The notes beneath the pieces are model-generated. The model had not been told where the DNA came from and ran no database searches. It worked only from the letters and a program-made list of their open reading frames with translations. Made by a program: the position numbers and the translations under genes. Below are positions 4,137 through 49,323 of a DNA stretch of 64,000 nucleotides, piece after piece; the stretch's first letter is position 1, and the number at the start of each line of letters is the position of its first letter. This DNA is from an uncultured Clostridia bacterium (lineage in GTDB: Bacteria; Bacillota; Clostridia; TANB77; CAG-508), in NCBI GenBank assembly GCA_947601495.1, contig CANQGE010000001.1, positions 31,731-95,730 of the forward strand, read 5' to 3'.

Positions 4137-7100
4137 TTATAAGTTTTTATTGTATTTTGTTTTAGGATATAAATTATCACCTAATAGTTCTTCTTCTATT
4201 CTAGCTTCTTCTTTTTGCTTTTCTCTTTCTTCTTCTCTTTGCTTTCTTATTTCCTCTTGTTTTCTCATTTTTTCTTCTTTTAGTTTTTGTCTTTCAATTT
4301 TTCTTTTTTCAGCTTTTTCTTTTCTTAGTTTATTTCTTTCTTCCCTTAATTTTCTTTGTTCTTCTTGTTTTTCTTTTTTATCTATAGATAATATATTTTC
4401 CTCATCTTTTTCTATTTCATACATTCCAGAATTTTCTGTTTCTGCACTCTCAACATCAATATCGCTTTTACTATCGAATTTTTCTATAATGCTTTCATAA
4501 AATTGCCTATTTTCCATTGATTTGTTAAACTCTTCTTCAGTTTTAAATTTTGAATCAATTTCATATATTTTTGAGAAATGAATCATAGATAATTTATCTG
4601 TTATGTTTATTCTATTTGTAAGCCAAATATTATTTAACTTATATTCAAGTTCAATATTAGATTCTTTTAATTCAGCTATTCTTAATCTTTTACATCTTAA
4701 ATCATATTCTTCTGATTTTTCATCTGGAAGTCTATCATAATTTTTTGACATACAATAAGCATAAGTATCTGCTCTATTAGAAACTACTTTTTCTTTTATC
4801 CAAACAGAATCATCATAATCGCAAAGAGTTGTATAAACTAAGGTATCTATTCTTTGAGCTTGCCTTTTGGTTATACCATATAATCCCATTAAGCCTTGCA
4901 TTCTATCACGTATTAGTGAAGGAGAATAATGTTTTTTCTCAAATCCGTCGTTTTTATCTATTCCTCGTATAATTTTTTCTACAAATATTTTTTCACTAAA
5001 TACTCTACAATATCCCTCTTCTGCATCAACAAAAATTAATACTGCACCATTTTTTTTGTTTGTTTCTACATTTTTTTTATCTTTTTTATGTTCTTTTTTT
5101 AATTCTCTTCTCTCTGCTTTTGCTCTTTCTAATTCTCTTTTCTCTGTTTCTCTTCTTTCTGCCTCTTGTTTTTCTTTTTCACGTTTTTCTATTTCTCTTT
5201 TTTCTGCTTCTATTCTTTCTTGTTCTATTCTTTCATTCTTTTTTGCTTCTAATTCTTTATTGTTCTCTTTTAAAATAGTTTCATTTTTTTCTTTCTGAAT
5301 ATTTTTAAAATCATTCTTTTTATTTATTTCATTTTCATTTTGAAATTCATCAAAAGTTTCCTGACCTTCGTAAGTATCTGAATTATTTTCTTTCTCTACA
5401 TCTAAATTTTCATCTAAGCTGTCAAATGATAATTGTGTGTTTTCTTCAGTTTCAATGTTGTTTAGATATATTTTGTCAAATTCTTTTTCTTTTTTTCTTT
5501 CTTCTATTTTTTCTTTAATACCTAATCCAAAATTTACTGTACTTGTTTTTACTTTATTAAAAGAGTTACTTACTACAGCTACGGTTTTTTCTTTTAAATT
5601 TTTTAATGATTTTGCAATATTTTCAAAATAATTATTAACTTTAAAACTTGATTCTGCATTATTAACTCTATTAGAAGAATTATTTATTAAAACAATGTTG
5701 TTTACATTTGTTTTTTTAGGATTTTTATTATAAATATTATTTTTATCTACAATTTCAATTTCTGGAATTATTGTTTTTATACTATCTTCTATATTGATAA
5801 TTTTTTCTTTATTTTCATTATTAGTTTTATCGTTTAAGTTTTCTTTACTTTCTGCTTTTTGCTCTTCCTTTTTATTATCATTATCTTTTACTTCGTTTGA
5901 CTCATCTTTTTCTTCTTTTTTATCTTTATTTTTATTTTCAATTTTATTTTCTTTATCTTCTAACTTATTATTATCTAATTTTTCTACGATAACTTCTTCT
6001 TTATTTTCAGACTGCTTTTTCTGTTCTATTTTATCTATTTTTGCTGCCATAAGAAGTTTTTGTTTTTTCTCTTCTTGTTTTTCTTTCGCAAAATCTTTTA
6101 ATTTATTAATTAGATTTTTTAAATTTTCTATAATTTTAGAAACGTTTAATTTTAAAAATGAAAATACTTTAATAGAAGTTGTTTTTATGTCTTGGAAAGA
6201 TATTTTTCTTCTAAATTTAGTTTTGTTTATTATAATTCCCATTGGATTTCCACCAACATTTTGAATATCTTTCTTAGCTTTAAATAAATCCTCTTTTTTA
6301 GTTTTCTTATAGTCCGATACTATTATTGTTGAATTAACAGCTCTAGTTAAAATTAAAGAATTCATATTGTTTAACACAGAAGTTCCATCTATTAAAACTA
6401 AATCATAAAAAACACTTAAGTCTTTTATTAATTCTTGTAATCTTTCAGAAGTAAGCAATTCTGTTGAATTTGGTGGTACTGTTCCTGAAGTAATCAAATT
6501 TAAATTTTTTATTCCTGTTTCATTTATAAAATTGTTTGTAAGTTTTTTTATTTCCATTCCATTAGAATCTAAACTTGATAAGTAATTAGAAAATCCAAGA
6601 TTGTTTGGTATGTTAAATATTTTATTTTGTCTACCATTTTGCATATCTGAATCTATTATTATTACTTTTTTTCCACTTTCTGCAAAAATTACACCAAGAT
6701 TAGCTGTAATGTAACTTTTTCCTTCACCATCTAAAGGACTTGTTATAAGTATTATGTTTTTCTCTTTATTATTAACGTTTATAAATTGAATATTAGTTCT
6801 AAGATTTCTAAATGCTTTTAAAGTTATTGATTTGCTTCCTGAAGTAGTTGATATTAATTCATTTTTAATTTTATTTGATTTATTTTTTTTGCAATTTATT
6901 AAAGGAATTTCAATTAATTTTTTTAAATTTATTTCATTATCGATGTTCTCATTAATTTTAATATTTCTGTCTATAATCGCTACAGCAAAAATATAACCAG
7001 AGCTTACTAAAATACCAATTATAAGAGAAATAAACGCACATAATATTATTGAAATATTTGTTGTAACTTTATTTATATGAGGACTATCAACTATATATAT

Positions 7101-21604: not shown

Positions 21605-21837
21605 TTTACATTCCTCCTATAAATTAATTTTATTTATTTGAAATGTAACCTCTACAATATAGTATTTTGCTTAAAAATAATACATTGTACAAGCTACTCT
21701 TTCAAATAAATAACCATAAGTATTTTACTATATTAACATAAAAAAATCAAGATAATATTTATTTCTAAGTTCTATCATTTGCATTTGTATATTTTTTAAT
21801 TATTAATTTTATTTTTAGCTATTATTATTTAAATAGC

Positions 21838-21991
21838 TATCTAATATAGTTTATATAATTTAAAGGTAACGCGTAAGCGACCAACCGAAGCGAAAGCGAA
21901 GGGCGATTGGAGCAATCTTCATTTTGTTAATTTTAAAAAAAGAAGATTGCGACACCAAGTTACCGATAAATTATATAAACTATATTAGATA
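21838..21991. repeat. Foldback element copy 1: 25-bp perfect outer inverted repeat flanking a 100-nt GC-rich core (21865-21964, GGTAAC...GTTACC)
   Basis: Outer arms tatctaatatagtttatataattta and its exact reverse complement. Core ggtaacgcgtaagcgaccaaccgaagcgaaagcgaagggcgattggagcaatcttc...gaagattgcgacaccaagttacc, which contains an internal stem agcaatcttc/gaagattgc. The same core occurs in reverse orientation at 44553-44652. It lies in the rpsO-pnp intergenic (pnp leader) region. Confidence 0.8.
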
Positions 21992-22039
21992 ATGGTATTT
22001 TAATTAAACAGATATAATAAACTTAAAATAAAATTTTTG

Positions 22040-22072
22040 CTTCAAAATAAAAAACTCGGAACAAATCCGAGC
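22040..22072 (-). terminator. Rho-independent terminator / attenuator after rpsO (ahead of pnp)
   Basis: Minus-strand AAAAGCUCGGAUUUGUUCCGAGUUUUUUAUUUU, with a 6-bp GC-containing stem plus a U-run, 7 nt after the rpsO stop. This is the classical rpsO-pnp arrangement. Confidence 0.7.
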
Positions 22073-22078
22073 TTTTAA

Positions 22079-25699: not shown

Positions 25700-25790
25700 A
25701 AAATCCTCCTAAAAAATTTTTTAATTTAATTTTTTATTAACTATATAATATAACTGAATTGCAGCTATCGCTTTTGAAAGTAATTGAGTT

Positions 25791-25866
25791 AGAATTGCTT
25801 AATATATTTTACGGAAAGAGTTCACAAACTTGTGGAAGGGTGCCGTAAAATGTATTTAGCAATTCT
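25791..25866. repeat. Long imperfect palindrome (~76 bp) in the intergenic region upstream of the small membrane-protein gene
   Basis: Outer stem agaattgct/agcaattct and inner stem ttttacgg/ccgtaaaa enclose the palindromic core cacaaacttgtg. It reads the same on both strands. Confidence 0.6.
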
Positions 25867-25967
25867 ACGAAAATTAGCTTGAACAAGATAGCGAAAATGA
25901 AGTTATATTATATAGCTAATAAAGCTTATTTCTAAGTAAAAGTTTTTAAGCAAAAGTATATTTTTAA

Positions 25968-43090: not shown

Positions 43091-44377
43091 ATGAAAATTT
43101 TAATGCTATCATGGGAATATCCACCAAGAGTTGTTGGAGGTATATCAAGAGTGGTTTATGACTTATCACACAAATTATGTATGCAAGGTCATAAAGTTAC
43201 CGTTATTACTTATAAAGATGGTAATGTACCATATTTTGAAGATGATGATGGTGTTGATGTTTACAGAGTAGATAATTTTATGATTGCTCCTAATAATTTT
43301 ATAGATTGGGTTATGCAACTTAATTTCAATATGATAGCAAAAGCTGGAGAAATTATTGCACAACAAGGAAACTTTGATGTTATACATGCTCATGATTGGC
43401 TTACTGCTTATGCTGGAAAAACATTAAAATTTGCATATAATACTCCTCTTGTAGCTACTATACATGCTACTGAAGCTGGTAGAAATAGCGGTATTAGAGG
43501 TGATATGCAAAAATATATTAATGATACTGAATGGATGCTTACTTATGAATCTTCAGAAGTTATCGTTAATAGTAATTATATGAAAAACGAATTACAAAGA
43601 CTTTTTGGTCTTCCTTATGAGAAAATAAATGTAGTACCTAATGGTGTTGATCTTACTTTATTTAATGGAATTGATAGAGACTATGAATTTAGAAGAAGAT
43701 TTGCCATGGATAATGAAAAAATTATTCTATTCATGGGTAGATTAGTTTATGAAAAAGGTATTCAAACACTTATTTCTGCTATGCCTAAAATCTTAGACAA
43801 TTATCATGATGCAAAATTAGTTATCGCAGGAAAAGGCGGAATGATTAATGAATTAAGAAATCAAGTTAATTTCCTTGGATTAGGAAATAAAGTTTATTTC
43901 ACAGGACACTTAGCTTCTAAAGATGTTCAAAAAATGTACAAGTGTGCTGATGTTGCTGTATTCCCTAGTACATATGAACCTTTTGGAATTGTAGCTATTG
44001 AAGCTATGCTTTCTGGAACACCAGTAGTTACTTCTGATGTTGGTGGATTAAATGAAATTGTAGAACATGGAGTAAATGGAATGAAAAGTTATGCTGGAAA
44101 TCCAAACTCTCTTGCAGATTCTATTCTTGCATTATTATTTAATCCAGAATTATGCAACACAGTTTCAAAAAATGCAAAAGAAAAAGTTAAAGCTCAATAT
44201 AATTGGACTAAAATTACAGAAGAAACTCACTTCACTTATGAAACAGCTATTTGTGAAACTATTGCAGAAAGACAAAAGAAACAAATTGCTCAAGAAGAAG
44301 CTCGTAATCAAATTAAAAAATCTAAAGAAGTTACAAACCTACTTTCATTCAAGAAAACTCACGAGGCATTTGCATAA
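43091..44377 (+). CDS. GT4-family glycosyltransferase (glycogen-synthase-like, retaining GT-B)
   Basis: MKILMLSWEYPPRVVGGISRVVYDLS N-terminus. E..xxxxxxE region (EPFGIVAIEAM). Good SD (aaaggagca) ahead of the ATG. 428 aa. Confidence 0.8.
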   Translation: MKILMLSWEYPPRVVGGISRVVYDLSHKLCMQGHKVTVITYKDGNVPYFEDDDGVDVYRVDNFMIAPNNFIDWVMQLNFNMIAKAGEIIAQQGNFDVIHAHDWLTAYAGKTLKFAYNTPLVATIHATEAGRNSGIRGDMQKYINDTEWMLTYESSEVIVNSNYMKNELQRLFGLPYEKINVVPNGVDLTLFNGIDRDYEFRRRFAMDNEKIILFMGRLVYEKGIQTLISAMPKILDNYHDAKLVIAGKGGMINELRNQVNFLGLGNKVYFTGHLASKDVQKMYKCADVAVFPSTYEPFGIVAIEAMLSGTPVVTSDVGGLNEIVEHGVNGMKSYAGNPNSLADSILALLFNPELCNTVSKNAKEKVKAQYNWTKITEETHFTYETAICETIAERQKKQIAQEEARNQIKKSKEVTNLLSFKKTHEAFA

Positions 44378-44407
44378 GATTTTAATAAAATATGTTTATA
44401 ATAATAT

Positions 44408-44446
44408 AAAAACTCTTAGGAATTATTTTCTTAAGAGTTTTTTTGA
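44408..44446 (+). terminator. Rho-independent terminator after the GT4 gene
   Basis: Perfect 10-bp stem aaaactctta/taagagtttt followed by TTTT. Confidence 0.6.
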
Positions 44447-44527
44447 TAAGAAAAATTGCTTAATATTATTAACATTGCTTAATAATATTATTAAATATTA
44501 ATCAATACTATTAATCAATACTATTGT

Positions 44528-44677
44528 GAATGCTTAAAAAATATAATTTAATAGTAACTTGGTGTCGCAATCTTCTTTTTTATAAATAAACAAAAGGAAG
44601 ATTGCTCCAATCGCCCTCCGCTTATGCTTCGGTTGGTCGCTTACGCGTTACTATTTAATTATATTTTTTAAGCATTC
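44528..44677. repeat. Foldback element copy 2: ~30-bp outer inverted repeat flanking the same 100-nt GC-rich core, in reverse orientation relative to copy 1
   Basis: The outer arm gaatgcttaaaaaatataatttaatagtaac and its complement gttactatttaattatattttttaagcattc flank the core. Apart from a few substitutions, the core is the reverse complement of 21865-21964. Confidence 0.8.
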
Positions 44678-44714
44678 ATAATATTTTTTGCAATTAATTT
44701 TAAAAATTATTTTA

Positions 44715-44975
44715 TTACTTCTTTTTGAGGTAAAGAAAAAGAACTCTTATTTGAGTTCTCCGTAACATTTCTTCTAATATTTTCTCTGCTACTATCAAAG
44801 GTGTTTGTTTTGGATTTGGTATTGCGCTGATTTTCTCCAAGTATTCTATTTGTTTCTCCCTCGGAAGCTTTTGAGCTTTCTCTACCATATTGTCCAAATA
44901 TTCCATTCGTTCCTTTTCTGTTCTCTGAAAACTTGTTAGACAACTGAATATTGTTCCTGATGGGTAATATACCAT
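44715..44975 (-). CDS. Small hypothetical helical protein (86 aa); an alternative-frame ORF overlaps it
   Basis: The ORF has an SD (aaaggggaag) ahead of its ATG. Its sequence is K/E-rich and helical (EKAQKLPREKQIEYLEKISAIPNPKQ). A second ORF, 44707-44943, in another frame is also SD-preceded, so the choice is unresolved. Confidence 0.3.
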   Translation of the reverse strand: MVYYPSGTIFSCLTSFQRTEKERMEYLDNMVEKAQKLPREKQIEYLEKISAIPNPKQTPLIVAEKILEEMLRRTQIRVLFLYLKKK

Positions 44976-45006
44976 TATTTTTCTTCCCCTTTAATCATTA
45001 ACATTA

Positions 45007-45672
45007 TTATCTAAGAAAATAATAAATTCCATATAAAATTAACATATGAGCTGGATAAAAACAGTAATAGAAATATTTTATTTTCTTTCCTAATTTTCCA
45101 TTATATAGCATCATTATAACTAGTGGTATTATATATCCAACTATATATATTGAATATATTTTTAAATTTGCTCCTATACTAAATAAGTATACTGAAATTA
45201 AAAGTATATATGGAATTGGGAAAAGTACTCTATGATCTTTAAAAATGTAAATTATTAAAACTAAGGTTATTCCAAACCAGCCATAGTCAACATTTAATAT
45301 TTCTCCTAATGCAATTATTAATATGCATAAAGGTATTGACAAATATTTTTTCTCTATTTTTGAATATGCTAAAATTGCTAATAATCCAAGTAGTAGCGTA
45401 AACATTATGTTTAGCATTTTCCACTCGCCTACAAGTGTTCTAAATAACATAAATGGTAATTGCGATATTAATCCAAAAATAAAAAGTCTTTTCATATAAG
45501 ATTTTAAATTACTTGTATGTACAAATCCTTCTGTAATTAAAAAAGCAAATAGTGGAAACGCTACTCTTCCTAAAATTATTGTTAGTAAATTTTGAGTTAC
45601 TGGCAAAGCATATTTTACATGGTCTAGTACCATTGTTATACAAGCTATAATTTTTATTACAAAAACACTCAT
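45007..45672 (-). CDS. TraX-family membrane protein
   Basis: IKIIACITMVLDHV...LGRVAFPLFAFLITEGF matches the TraX family. About six TM helices. 221 aa. Confidence 0.65.
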   Translation of the reverse strand: MSVFVIKIIACITMVLDHVKYALPVTQNLLTIILGRVAFPLFAFLITEGFVHTSNLKSYMKRLFIFGLISQLPFMLFRTLVGEWKMLNIMFTLLLGLLAILAYSKIEKKYLSIPLCILIIALGEILNVDYGWFGITLVLIIYIFKDHRVLFPIPYILLISVYLFSIGANLKIYSIYIVGYIIPLVIMMLYNGKLGKKIKYFYYCFYPAHMLILYGIYYFLR

Positions 45673-45675
45673 AAT

Positions 45676-46116
45676 TTATCCTAATAATTCCTTTACAACT
45701 TCATTAATAGTTTTTCCATCTGCTCCAGCACCTATTCTTGCTTTAGATTCTTTCATAACCATTCCCATATCTTTTAAAGAAGTAGCTCCAACATCTTTTA
45801 TTACTTTTTCTACTTCTACTTTTATTTCTTCTTTTGAAAGCTGTTTTGGTAAATATTCTTGCAAAATAGAAATTTCTTCATTTGTTTGATTTATTAAATC
45901 TTCTCTTTTGGCTTTTTCAAAATCTACAAGTGCATCTTTCTTTCCTTTTACTTCTTTTGCAATTATTTCAATTATTTTTTCATCTTCAACTTTTATTCCT
46001 TTGTCTTTTTCAATTTGTAAAATTGCAGCTCTAACCATTTGTATAGTGTTTTTTCTTACTTCATTTTTTTCTTTCATAGATTGTTTTAAATCTTCCATTA
46101 ATTTATCTTTTAACAT
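45676..46116 (-). CDS. GatB/YqeY-domain protein
   Basis: 146 aa. The MLKDKLMEDLKQSMKEKNEVRKNTIQMVRAAI...GADGKTINEVVKELL pattern is typical of YqeY. Confidence 0.75.
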   Translation of the reverse strand: MLKDKLMEDLKQSMKEKNEVRKNTIQMVRAAILQIEKDKGIKVEDEKIIEIIAKEVKGKKDALVDFEKAKREDLINQTNEEISILQEYLPKQLSKEEIKVEVEKVIKDVGATSLKDMGMVMKESKARIGAGADGKTINEVVKELLG

Positions 46117-46172
46117 ATGTTCTCCCTCTCTTTCTTATATTACTTTACTACAAAATATTCTTTTTATCAATA

Positions 46173-46667
46173 TCAAAATGTTATTAAATCTAAATAACTT
46201 AAAACTGAAACTTCCACAATTCGTTCTAATAGCTCTTTATATTCTTTTATTCTAAAATTAACAAATCCTTCAATTACAATTTTTTTGTTTTCTAACAAAT
46301 AATCTTTTATAGAATTTCTTAAAAGATCACTTTTATATCCTATTTTTTCATCTGGTAATTCTAGAACTTTTTTTGTTATTTCAAAAATGTAATTTCTTTC
46401 AAGGCTACTTAAATAAAAATAATTTTTTTCAACACTTTTTCTAATAAAATCTTCTTCATAAAATTTTTCAATACACCTTTTAATAATTATTGCAACTATT
46501 TCATAAAATTCATTAATGTAATCTTTTTCTAAATAATGAATGAATAAATTATCATATGTTTTAAATCTATAATTAGACATGCAAATATTTATTGGTAAAA
46601 GTTCAAATTGCTTTATTAAAAAATCTATTTTTTCCTCACTAATAGTTTTTATACATATTGTTTTCAA
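46173..46667 (-). CDS. Hypothetical cytoplasmic protein (possibly sporulation-associated)
   Basis: 164-aa ORF with ordinary coding composition. I recognise no motif with confidence. Confidence 0.45.
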   Translation of the reverse strand: MKTICIKTISEEKIDFLIKQFELLPINICMSNYRFKTYDNLFIHYLEKDYINEFYEIVAIIIKRCIEKFYEEDFIRKSVEKNYFYLSSLERNYIFEITKKVLELPDEKIGYKSDLLRNSIKDYLLENKKIVIEGFVNFRIKEYKELLERIVEVSVLSYLDLITF

Positions 46668-46743
46668 TTAAATACCTCTTCTTAAATTAAAATTTATTAA
46701 TTTATATTATTCATATTTTTCCTTTAGTGTGTTTAGATTATTC

Positions 46744-46785
46744 AAAAAAAAGAACTAAAATTATTTTATAATTTTAGCTCTTTTT
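46744..46785 (-). terminator. Probable terminator after the 46808-47323 gene
   Basis: Stem of about 11 bp (gagctaaaatt/aattttagttc, one mismatch). The minus-strand hairpin is followed by UUUUUUUU. Confidence 0.5.
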
Positions 46786-46807
46786 AAAACAATATGTTTC
46801 TTATATT

Positions 46808-47323
46808 TTAATTATCAGTTGCCTTACTATTAACATTTTGGAATGCAACATGCTCTACATTTTTATCTAATGCAACAAACATATATACATACCATTTGTC
46901 TGATAAAGACCCTGCCAAAGTTTCAAATTTATAAGTGTATCCAATTGTAGCTTCTGTTTTACCTGAATTGTACTCTAAAGTATCTATTGAATGAATATAA
47001 TCCTTAGATGTATCTTCATATAAAACAACAACAGCTAAGTTATTTTCTTTAAAGAAATCTTCTGTATAAGTTTCAGTTAAAGTTGATTTTTTAAAAGTTA
47101 CTTCATTTGTTATTGCATCATTTACTTGATTTTTCTTAATAAATTTTGTAAAAGAATCATAATCTGTTATAAGAGTATTTTCTGCATTTACACTTGACCT
47201 TGTAACATTATATTCTACTTTTTTTGGCTTTCTTATTACTGCAAAGTATATAACTCCAATAGCCACAACTACTATAAGAGCAATAATAATTATTGTTTTT
47301 TTACTTGTTCCATTATTTTCCAT
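46808..47323 (-). CDS. Membrane-anchored hypothetical protein (N-terminal TM, extracytoplasmic domain)
   Basis: The sequence TSKKTIIIIALIVVVAIGVIYFAVI is followed by a soluble domain. 171 aa. Confidence 0.5.
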   Translation of the reverse strand: MENNGTSKKTIIIIALIVVVAIGVIYFAVIRKPKKVEYNVTRSSVNAENTLITDYDSFTKFIKKNQVNDAITNEVTFKKSTLTETYTEDFFKENNLAVVVLYEDTSKDYIHSIDTLEYNSGKTEATIGYTYKFETLAGSLSDKWYVYMFVALDKNVEHVAFQNVNSKATDN

Positions 47324-47409
47324 TTTCTTTTCCCCTTTTAAATTACTATAACTATCATAACTTATAAAAAAGAAAAAAACAAGTTTTAGTTAAATTTTTT
47401 ACAAAAACG

Positions 47410-48288
47410 TTATAAACTATTATTTATTCCTTCTGAAACAATATTTGTTATGCTATCTATTAATGTATCTATTTCTTTTGGAGTTACTATAAAATTAAAA
47501 TTATTTAATTTCATTTTATCAATTAGTTCATTCTCATTAACTTCAAAATCACATACTTTTAAAGTGTCTAATACAATTGTTGCTGCATCTAAAACCGTTG
47601 GAACTCCAATGCTTATTACTGGTATTCCTAAAGTTTCCTCAGATAAATCTGTTCTTTTATTTCCAACTCCCCCTCCTGGTGCTATGCCAGTATCAGAAAT
47701 TTGTATAGATTTATTTATTCTATCTATATTTTTTGAACACAAACTATCTATTGCAATAATTAATTTTGGCTTGATATTATCTACTATTCCCTTTACTATT
47801 TCAACAGTTTCCATTCCAGTTGTTCCTAAAACTCCTGGCGTTATTGCACTAACGCTTCTTGTATTTTTATCTATAATTTCTGGTAAATACATTTTAATAT
47901 GCCTTGTTATTTCTATGTTTTGAACTACTTTTGCACCTAATGAATCTGGTGTTGCATATAAATTTCCTAAACCTACTATTAATATTTCATCATTTGAATT
48001 TACATGTTTTTTAATTATTTCTCTTAATTCATTTGAAAAAACATTTACAATTTTTTCTTCTTTTTCTGTAGTTATATTATTTATTTTTTTAACATCAATT
48101 GTTGTATAATTTCCTCTTTTTTTGTCCAGTGCTCTTTCTCCATCTTCATTTATTATTTTAACTCTCGTAACTACAATATCATCTATTTTTTCTTCTTCAC
48201 ATTCTATTCCCTCTACTTCGCTTTCTAATTTATTAGCAGTTCTATATAAGTCTCTTCTTTCAACAGCCATATCTGTTCTAAAAAACAT
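47410..48288 (-). CDS. gpr: Germination protease GPR (spore endopeptidase)
   Basis: MFFRTDMAVERRD start, the LIVGLGN...TPDSLGAKVV catalytic region and an overall length typical of Gpr. 292 aa. Confidence 0.8.
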   Translation of the reverse strand: MFFRTDMAVERRDLYRTANKLESEVEGIECEEEKIDDIVVTRVKIINEDGERALDKKRGNYTTIDVKKINNITTEKEEKIVNVFSNELREIIKKHVNSNDEILIVGLGNLYATPDSLGAKVVQNIEITRHIKMYLPEIIDKNTRSVSAITPGVLGTTGMETVEIVKGIVDNIKPKLIIAIDSLCSKNIDRINKSIQISDTGIAPGGGVGNKRTDLSEETLGIPVISIGVPTVLDAATIVLDTLKVCDFEVNENELIDKMKLNNFNFIVTPKEIDTLIDSITNIVSEGINNSL

Positions 48289-48374
48289 AATTTAAGTCTC
48301 CTCTCATTAAAACAAATTTACTATTTAATATTTTCCTACATTTTAATTTTTTTATGCAAAATAGAATTTTAAAT

Positions 48375-48420
48375 AAAACAAAAAAATCTTTTTGCTTTTT
48401 TTAGCAAAAAGATTTTTTTA
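48375..48420 (-). terminator. Rho-independent terminator after yebC (hairpin also followed by a T-run on the plus strand)
   Basis: Perfect ~14-bp stem aaaaatctttttgc/gcaaaaagattttt flanked by T-runs on both strands. Confidence 0.6.
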
Positions 48421-48438
48421 ATATTTTATTATATTTAA

Positions 48439-49164
48439 TTATTCTTCCCAATTGTGGAAAACTTCTAATACATCATCTAAATCTTCAAGATTATCTATTA
48501 ATCTTTGCATTTTTTCTGCATGATTCTCATCTAATGATACATAAGTATTTGGAACCATTTGAACTCCAGCTTCTAAAAATGTTAAGTTATTTTTAGTTAA
48601 TTCTTCTGTTACAGCTGTAAAATCACTTGGTGCTGTTGTTATTTCATAAACTTCTTCTTCAGAAGAAAAATCTTCTGCACCAGCTTCAATAGCAAGCATC
48701 ATTAAATCATCTTCACTTAATTTACATTCTGATTTTTCTATAACTATAACGCCTTTTTTCTCAAACATATATGATACACAACCTGTTGTTCCTAAGTTTC
48801 CTCCAGCTTTATCAAAAACATGTCTTACATCTGCTGCAGTTCTATTTTTATTATTTGTTGATGCATTAACAATAACTGCAACACCGCTTGGTCCATATCC
48901 TTCATATGTTATTTCATCATAAGTTTCATTACTTCCTGCTCCAGAAGCCTTTTTTATAGCATTATTTATTGTATCATTTGGCATGTTGTTTGCTTTACAT
49001 TTTGCAATAACATCTTTTAATTTTGAATTTCCTGCTGGGTCAGGTCCACCTTGTTTTACAGCTATTAATAATTCTCTTCCTAATTTTGTAAATATTTTTC
49101 CTCTTGCAGCATCTGCTTTTCCTTTTTTGGCTTGTATGTTATGCCATTTGCTATGTCCTGACAT
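48439..49164 (-). CDS. yebC: YebC/PmpR-family DNA-binding transcriptional regulator
   Basis: [32 protein letters not shown] is the family's N-terminal signature. 241 aa. Confidence 0.9.
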
Positions 49165-49323
49165 TAAATTTCTCCCCTTTCAAATTCATTTTTATTTAAG
49201 CTTTTCAATTATAGCACATTTCATCTATTTTGTCTATTTTTTTAATTTACTTATAGCATCTTTTTATCTATATTTTCAAATTGTTTATAACATTTTTTCA
49301 TCTATGCTCTTTAAAATTATAGT

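Follow-up and report, generated by a model that had tools for sequence, protein, structure and literature searches.

The foldback at 44.5 kb of the window (the whole stretch of 64,000 nucleotides analysed here), which we call copy 2, is probably a member of a new multi-copy family of non-coding foldback elements of the MITE-like or ERIC-like class, the arms of which are homogenised and the core flipped by way of the arms themselves, and which may spread in trans. The element has no demonstrated host function and lies outside any mobile island. The unit is ~135–165 bp long and in every copy comprises an asymmetric 88-nt core between 25–40 bp AT-rich inverted arms. A profile search with a family-built profile found only two copies in the 64-kb window, the other (copy 1) being located between rpsO and pnp. 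The window has a G+C content of 26%, against 42–43% for the core (56% in its first 50 nt) and 14–18% for the arms of the two window copies. The features referred to below are as follows:

21838–21870, pnp-side arm of copy 1, 33 nt (repeat finder, I4; anchored arm alignment)
21871–21958, plus strand, conserved core of copy 1, 88 nt, orientation opposite to copy 2; position unchanged in seven contigs from this species
21959–21991, rpsO-side arm of copy 1, 33 nt (repeat finder, I4; anchored arm alignment)
43091–44377, plus strand, GT4-family glycosyltransferase gene upstream of copy 2 (Pfam Glycos_transf_1 and Glyco_transf_4)
44522–44558, GT4-side arm of copy 2, 37 nt, 16% GC, pairing with 44647–44683 (anchored arm alignment; repeat finder, I2; GC content)
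44559–44646, minus strand, conserved core of copy 2, 88 nt, 43% GC, reading GCGTAAGCGACCAACCGAAGCATAAGCGGAGGGCGATTGGAGCAATCTTCC...GAAGATTGCGACACCAAG on the minus strand; orthologous copies in MAG bin83 (L010) and in L076
44567–44605, internal hairpin of the copy 2 core, GCAATCTTC ... GAAGATTGC (covariation across subfamilies)
44647–44683, TraX-side arm of copy 2, 37 nt, 14% GC (anchored arm alignment)
44715–44975, minus strand, 86-aa ORF, doubtful as a gene, between copy 2 and the TraX gene; predicted by gene callers in two same-strain contigs
45007–45672, minus strand, TraX-family membrane protein gene (Pfam), the first of the genes converging on copy 2 to be well supported

Anchored arm alignment resolves window positions 44522–44683 into a 162-bp foldback made up of a 37-nt arm, the 88-nt core and a second 37-nt arm; the repeat finder reports the local foldback around it as I2 (44490–44558 / 44647–44715, 77%). 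A hairpin and T-run at ~44413–44444, read by eye and absent from the list of the consensus terminator scan, is terminator-like for the GT4 gene, which places copy 2 downstream of the terminator of that gene. Another terminator-like hairpin (44761–44738) is found inside the 3' end of the 86-aa ORF, the product of which has no Pfam match. This ORF is carried on a ~280-bp block (44716–44999) present in the window and in L075/L076, in place of which MAG bin83 (L010) has ~100 unrelated bases. The earlier note had put the element between the 3' ends of the GT4 gene and of a small minus-strand ORF. Pfam bears out the GT4 assignment and the ORF is present, but it is the TraX gene that can be relied upon as the converging neighbour. 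The convergent arrangement holds whether or not the ORF counts as a gene, and copy 2 lies between convergent transcription units, outside their terminators. The ~45-bp palindromic terminator hairpin 3' of the GT4 gene is missing from the otherwise identical same-strain contig L076 (~2190–2230 versus window 44405–44450), which is either a deletion polymorphism or an assembly artefact.

The same core does occur in reverse complement 22.5 kb away, as had been claimed, 44559–44646 being the reverse complement of 21871–21958, and each copy does possess a locus-specific outer stem (37+37 bp in copy 2, 33+33 bp in copy 1). The repeat finder aligns the two as inverted pair I1 (21853–21976 versus 44541–44664, 124 nt, 90% complementary, 22,564 nt apart) and gives the local foldback around copy 1 as I4 (21838–21870 / 21959–21991, 94%). 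The block shared by the copies, previously described as a 100-nt core, is real; on anchored alignment the core itself is 88 nt, and the remainder consists of the shared GTAAC and GTTAC at its two ends, beyond which the arms differ.

Could these two copies serve as substrates for a large inversion, or bound a mobile or invertible segment of 22.5 kb? We regard this as extremely unlikely. Inverted sequences of 124 nt with 90% identity are within reach of homologous recombination, and the small-scale flips described below show that inverted repeats recombine in these genomes. Were these copies to recombine with one another, however, rpsO would be parted from pnp, and this is seen in no assembly compared. 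The collinearity of rpsO, element and pnp extends to seven independent contigs from the species of the window. The relatives fetched, whether they carry the element or not, all have rpsO and then pnp, in the same orientation, with the upstream gene order as in the window; the adjacency across copy 1 is the ancestral one. At the other junction L076 and bin83 (L010) both show the collinear order GT4-element-(small ORF)-TraX. The RecA-mediated inversion of 21.99–44.53 kb, which had been raised as possible in principle, accordingly finds no support in the assemblies, though a rare subpopulation might carry it. The comparison of synteny proposed with it shows that the gene order from rpsO through SpoIIP is conserved in relatives, including those without the element; the intervening segment is housekeeping, as had been said, and contains no integrase or transposase. 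The earlier view that the copies are not the ends of a mobile island therefore holds. Elsewhere in the window, the segments 53707–55205 and 56822–58332, about 3.1 kb apart and 71–77% identical over several hundred bases (direct repeats D1–D3 and D7), look like two large minus-strand genes in tandem, paralogous and diverged.

The spacer between rpsO and pnp (window 21605–22078; orthologues L044–L055 and L069–L074) is a hot spot for change. It measures 221–272 bp in some relatives and 474–683 bp in others, where it contains the element and AT-rich minisatellite-like repeats; other relatives have at this place a small minus-strand ORF (116–180 aa), a single gene (Rhamno_transf) or else four additional ORFs. 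The final ~170 bp before pnp, with a promoter-like TTGATT...TATAGT and a conserved leader, are kept in all the spacers compared. The element is present in this spacer in two lineages and absent from the more distant relatives L052, L072 and L074. No other empty orthologous site was found among the fetched loci, and these spacers are too diverged beside the insertion point to define the boundaries of the element. In the comparison of the window with L037–L043, two strains of the species differ by three SNPs in the 474-bp spacer, all three of which fall inside the core of copy 1, one converting the tetraloop GAAA to GCAA. These may reflect gene conversion from another copy, which is only suggestive since the flanks diverge by 0.5–1.3%.

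An exact 20-mer from the core, GGGCGATTGGAGCAATCTTC, was searched against a collection of species-representative genomes. It matched 36 stretches with about 42 sites, nearly all of them in a single MAG from rabbit gut, "uncultured Clostridia bacterium Lapin-015__bin83" (bin83), which carries at least 40 copies; a few further matches were to a second MAG, Lapin-032__bin102 (bin102). A match in Phycisphaerales (L023) was rejected as a chance occurrence of the 20-mer in GC-rich DNA. The window is 92–94% identical to bin83 over their overlap (window 43569–51744 versus L010), in which copy 2 is at the orthologous place, and the flanks of the window are 100% identical to three rabbit-gut metagenome contigs where compared. 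A looser pattern revealed 13 more loci in other metagenomes, which constitute a diverged subfamily. These data agree with the suggestion of the earlier note that the pair are dispersed copies of a small element, and dispose of its alternative, a curiosity of two sites. All of the hosts of the family are low in G+C (22–34%). A pattern search of viral contigs gave no family match, leaving a phage origin unsupported.

All 37 copies checked are intergenic, and their orientation with respect to the neighbouring genes is unbiased: 12 are co-directional with their neighbours and 9 antisense to them, and a further 8 lie between divergent and 5 between convergent genes. An all-against-all comparison of the ORFs in about 300 kb of flanking DNA uncovered no recurrent neighbour gene, the only pairs being orthologues, and in the fetched flanks no related autonomous element, integrase or transposase recurs beside the copies, nor was a RAYT or TnpA gene seen. 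The best flanking direct repeat has a mean length of 2.46 bp against 2.22 ± 0.22 bp for mismatched-flank controls, and never exceeds 5 bp; a 2-bp TA duplication could escape detection in such AT-rich DNA. In L016 (2440–2850; MAG bin102) three copies of the element are arranged head to tail with a period of 162 bp, and in the first two the 3' end is a variant one (GAAGATTTTGAGCACCAA) and the right arm is truncated. In bin83 (L036) there is a single copy at the orthologous site, and its core has the opposite orientation.

The 88-nt core has no coding capacity and is characterized by a GC-rich 5' end and one internal hairpin. The consensus of 53 distinct copies begins GCGTAAGCGACCAACCGAAGCG(T)AAGCG(N)AGGGCGA(T/C/A)TGGA, and continues in the main subfamily with the hairpin GCAATCTTCC...GAAGATTGC, followed by GCGACACCAAG. 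In the metagenome subfamily this hairpin is rewritten with compensating changes (GCAACTTAC...GGAAGTTGC and GCAATTTAC...GGAAATTGC), a wholly different stem being present in L060, and the arms differ too; hardly any change is seen in the 5' half of the core or in the GCGACACCAAG at its 3' side. Insertions of ~75 nt in L056 (~6998–7080) and ~25 nt in L062 (605–769) are accommodated in the loop of the hairpin, with the rest of the core intact. Such a near-invariant 5' core across subfamilies points to a sequence-specific constraint, which the term "selfish repeat" would leave unexplained.

By comparison the arms are variable. Among 35 copies of the main subfamily the core is 92% identical between copies (96% over the first 50 nt) and the arms 68%, with 93% complementarity within a copy; for the outermost 13 bp of the arms the corresponding values are 57%, which is about background, and 92%. 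The consensus of the arms is loose and fades outward (..TTATATATAnnTTTTATAAGTGAC to the left of the core, GTCACTnATAAAAnnTATATAA.. to its right), and the outermost 10–15 bp could be target-derived or represent pre-existing palindromes. Arms of 36–39 bp are common to L031 and L034, and to two copies in L019, despite their unrelated flanks. Since they are shared at unrelated loci the arms are part of the copied unit, and travel with the core during copying to new sites.

Both strands of the element fold far better than shuffled sequences (z about -10 to -11). In the consensus structure of 24 diverse copies, 96.3% of the cells are paired and both partners have changed in 15 of the 26 pairs; the covariation score is 0.42 compared with 0.14 for shuffled alignments (0/500 reach the observed value) and ≤0.10 with slid partners. 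The signal is confined to the outer stem and the internal hairpin (helix 7, in which both partners have changed in 4 of 7 pairs); the small helices within the core are invariant and hence without covariation support. In the stems, 103 double changes were counted versus 3 one-sided changes of the G·U type, and the mismatches in the arms (24 G·T, 27 A·C) display no strand bias, which argues that the complementarity of the arms is kept at the level of DNA. In one orientation of the core (plus strand in copy 1, minus strand in copy 2) there are two GNRA-like loops, GUAA with GAAA, GCAA and GAGA variants, together with a symmetric GAA/GAA internal loop, the middle base of which varies while the flanking G·A positions stay. 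These motifs keep a reading of the core as RNA or single-stranded DNA alive, without proving it. Rfam 15 yielded no match at the gathering threshold in the window, and only at E ≤ 10 were there chance-level matches, to copy 2 and one diverged copy. The tRNA/tmRNA scan of the window returned a single unrelated tRNA-Thr, and the region contains no more promoter-like matches than chance would give (5 against an expected 5.1).

When each copy was oriented by its core and the 600-nt flanks were compared between orthologues, three of five comparisons showed a core turned round with respect to its flanks: L005 (bin83) versus L020 (bin102), L036 versus L016, and window copy 1 versus L044–46. Direct alignment of the flipped pairs reveals that the flanks and outer arms are collinear and the interior is reverse-complemented. 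An asymmetric patch beside the core moves with it, and the breakpoints of the flip are therefore within the arms. The orientation is unchanged between window copy 2 and both bin83 and L076, and between window copy 1 and the seven contigs of the same species. Since the core flips inside its own arms between orthologous sites, the relative orientation of the two window copies carries little meaning; their opposition is a labile state and not a design feature.

A second, unrelated foldback is located at 25733–25923 of the window, between a 117-aa gene and a WG-repeat gene. It has 37-bp AT-rich arms (25733–25769 / 25887–25923) and a 117-nt core which forms a long hairpin; Rfam gives no match to it at the gathering threshold, and a 75%-identical copy is present at L002 1–186. 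The interior is inverted between strains of the same species (window and L040 versus L037–39), being 99% identical once inverted, and the arms and flanks are the same. At its site L044 is without the foldback but retains part of one arm, and L047 has homologous arms around a ~40-nt AT spacer.

According to three reports (PMC8604942, PMC13100816, PMC8794818), template switching between imperfect inverted repeats makes their arms alike, can extend them, and turns the spacer round. Polymerase template switching of this kind, or recombination between the arms, probably keeps the two arms of one copy alike at the DNA level, and the same process probably also flips the core and lengthens the arms. 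Arm-to-arm exchange would account for the locus-specific stems as well as the labile orientation, so that RNA-level selection need not be invoked. Template switching fits four observations, namely the Watson-Crick-only compensation, the locus-specific outer stems, the flips, and a case in which what is flank in one lineage belongs to the stem in another: TTTATTATAnCTGTTTAATTA adjoins the element in the window lineage, whereas L044 has it twice, as an inverted duplication that makes up the outer stem. The flips would equally be produced by homologous (RecA-type) recombination of one arm with the other. The arm-mediated flipping is the most instructive feature of the family.

How the element reaches new sites is the step of this scheme about which we are least confident. 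Based upon a conserved centre, variable ends, and no detectable duplication, the copies may be spread in trans by an unlinked activity that recognizes the folded centre and not the ends, comparable to REP/RAYT or IS200/IS605 systems more than to a classical terminal-repeat transposase. With no target-site duplication, and no autonomous element or transposase in the fetched flanks, it is the dispersal of the copies that suggests transposition. Conservation of the centre rather than the termini is atypical for MITEs mobilised by a transposase.

Several other readings deserve consideration. The family might be one of paralogous structured ncRNA genes or cis-acting RNA modules, the stem, hairpin and loops of which are under selection for RNA structure. 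Such a reading accommodates the strong covariation of the outer stem and internal hairpin, the folding z-scores of about -10, the near-invariance of the 5' core across subfamilies, the occurrence of two GNRA-like tetraloops (GUAA/GAAA/GCAA variants) and the symmetric GAA/GAA internal loop in one orientation, and the restriction of variable-length insertions to the hairpin loop (L056 and L062); the bcr1 repeat of Bacillus, which is reported to be transcribed and shows compensatory changes, provides a precedent (PMC3184786). We nevertheless consider it unlikely because G·U intermediates are nearly absent, the mismatches in the arms lack a G·T versus A·C strand bias, the orientation towards neighbouring genes is unbiased, Rfam offers no match, and the covariation does not extend to the small core helices. 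The core, moreover, flips strand between orthologues, by which a fixed promoter or terminator context is not preserved. An intrinsic terminator was ruled out, the window copies lying outside recognisable terminators. A related proposal, to which we likewise give only a small chance, is that the 88-nt core functions as a folded module of nucleic acid, either the recognition structure of an undescribed trans-acting enzyme or a small RNA the strand of which is toggled by flipping. It is suggested by the ~50-nt 5' part, 96% identical and nearly unchanged in the subfamily in which both hairpin and arms have been replaced. Were the core an enzyme recognition structure, the enzyme would be one that copies hairpin elements without target duplications; were it a strand-toggled small RNA, each copy would be a recombinase-independent mini-switch.

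Two further explanations concern the arms. The mobile unit may be smaller than the foldback, consisting of the core and ~20 bp of inner arm, and insert at the apex of pre-existing AT-rich palindromes (terminator-like hairpins), in which case the outer stems are the target. The outermost 13 bp, which resemble each other between copies no more than background yet are complementary within a copy, are what one would look for here; in L004, L012 and L032 the outer stems are framed by A-runs and T-runs as in bidirectional terminators, and at the site of the second foldback L047 has arms around a short AT spacer without a structured core. Full-length arms of 36–39 bp at unrelated loci (L031/L034 and L019) are difficult to reconcile with this, as is the position of the window copies, which lie beyond the recognisable terminators of rpsO, of the GT4 gene and of the minus-strand gene. 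The single arm that L044 has at the site of the second foldback is explained equally well by deletion or by arm expansion, and no empty palindrome was recovered among the fetched loci of the family. On balance we doubt this explanation. Lastly, the architecture, a segment between inverted repeats, is that of an inverton, and the flips between orthologues, and between strains at the second foldback, would agree with programmed inversion in which a dedicated invertase toggles a promoter or other signal in the core of each copy. Unlike recombinase-specific sites the inverted repeats are not conserved between copies (68%), no recombinase gene recurs near the copies in the fetched flanks, promoter-like matches do not exceed chance, and the many copies between convergent genes would leave a promoter without a target. 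Programmed inversion is accordingly very improbable.

The preferred reading, a MITE-like or ERIC-like foldback family with arms that exchange with one another, explains for the purposes of annotation the GC-rich island met with repeatedly in AT-rich spacers of these uncultured gut Clostridia, and the element gives no indication of a mobile island or a large chromosomal inversion. It also carries a warning: such repeats break assemblies and, since their covariation is probably produced at the DNA level, mimic structured RNAs. The family thus constitutes a cautionary case for RNA structures inferred from compensatory changes alone. With ~40 copies per genome, and orthologues in sister species, it represents a natural series in which arm homogenisation, arm extension and spacer inversion could be measured in bacteria.

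Comparison with known systems places the element among several. As with inverted repeats attributed to template switching, the arms are kept identical by double changes and extend into flank-like sequence, and the spacer is inverted (PMC8604942, PMC13100816, PMC8794818); the cases in those reports, from yeast, apes and E. coli, comprise short repeats and short spacers, as opposed to a repeat family with 25–40 bp arms and an 88-nt spacer. Like ERIC/IRU of the Enterobacteriaceae, YPAL of Yersinia, Correia/NEMIS of Neisseria and RUP of the pneumococcus, the family is multi-copy, non-coding, and within the range of 100–170 bp; it is exclusively intergenic, its inverted arms fold into a long hairpin, and its presence varies between related genomes (PMC3184786). 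It differs from them in that no target-site duplication was detected, the centre and not the termini is conserved, and no parent insertion sequence was found in the flanks; its host clade (uncultured low-GC Clostridia) and its sequence are unrelated to theirs. The bcr1 element (group A repeats of the Bacillus cereus group) is likewise a dispersed intergenic repeat of the Firmicutes, about 155 bp long, in which compensatory changes keep a cruciform-like fold (PMC3184786). It has 5-bp flanking direct repeats and is reported to be transcribed, the compensation having been interpreted at the RNA level (PMC3184786). In the Clostridia element no direct repeats were seen, the compensation is apparently Watson-Crick only, and the core flips strand.

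For mobilisation in trans of a hairpin with a conserved centre, the REP/REPIN-RAYT (HUH) system and the palindromes derived from IS200/IS605 would be the closest analogy, sharing with our family the maintenance of structure over terminal sequence, the lack of a target-site duplication, and dispersed intergenic hairpins. A REPIN is a pair of mutually inverted REP palindromes, both short and GC-rich, and the RAYT gene is flanked by REPs. The Clostridia unit has in place of two inverted REPs one asymmetric 88-nt core between AT-rich arms, with no RAYT/TnpA gene seen in the fetched flanks. Palindromes derived from IS200/IS605 have similar subterminal hairpins at both ends and insert 3' of a fixed tetra- or pentanucleotide. 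The two core hairpins of the present element (CGC-GUAA-GCG and GCAATCTTC...) are dissimilar, and no fixed flanking motif is visible where the boundaries of the element are uncertain. A structured ncRNA would be at odds with covariation nearly free of G·U intermediates, mismatches without strand bias and a core that changes strand; an inverton with arms 68% identical between copies and no recurrent neighbouring gene, flipping itself having been seen; and a mobile island or large inversion with the conserved gene order from rpsO through SpoIIP and two collinear junctions. With MITEs the family shares the inverted arms around a short non-coding core and the dispersed, variably present copies, though not the target-site duplication. 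Its closest relatives in kind are the imperfect palindromes of the ERIC/YPAL type, together with bcr1 of Bacillus.
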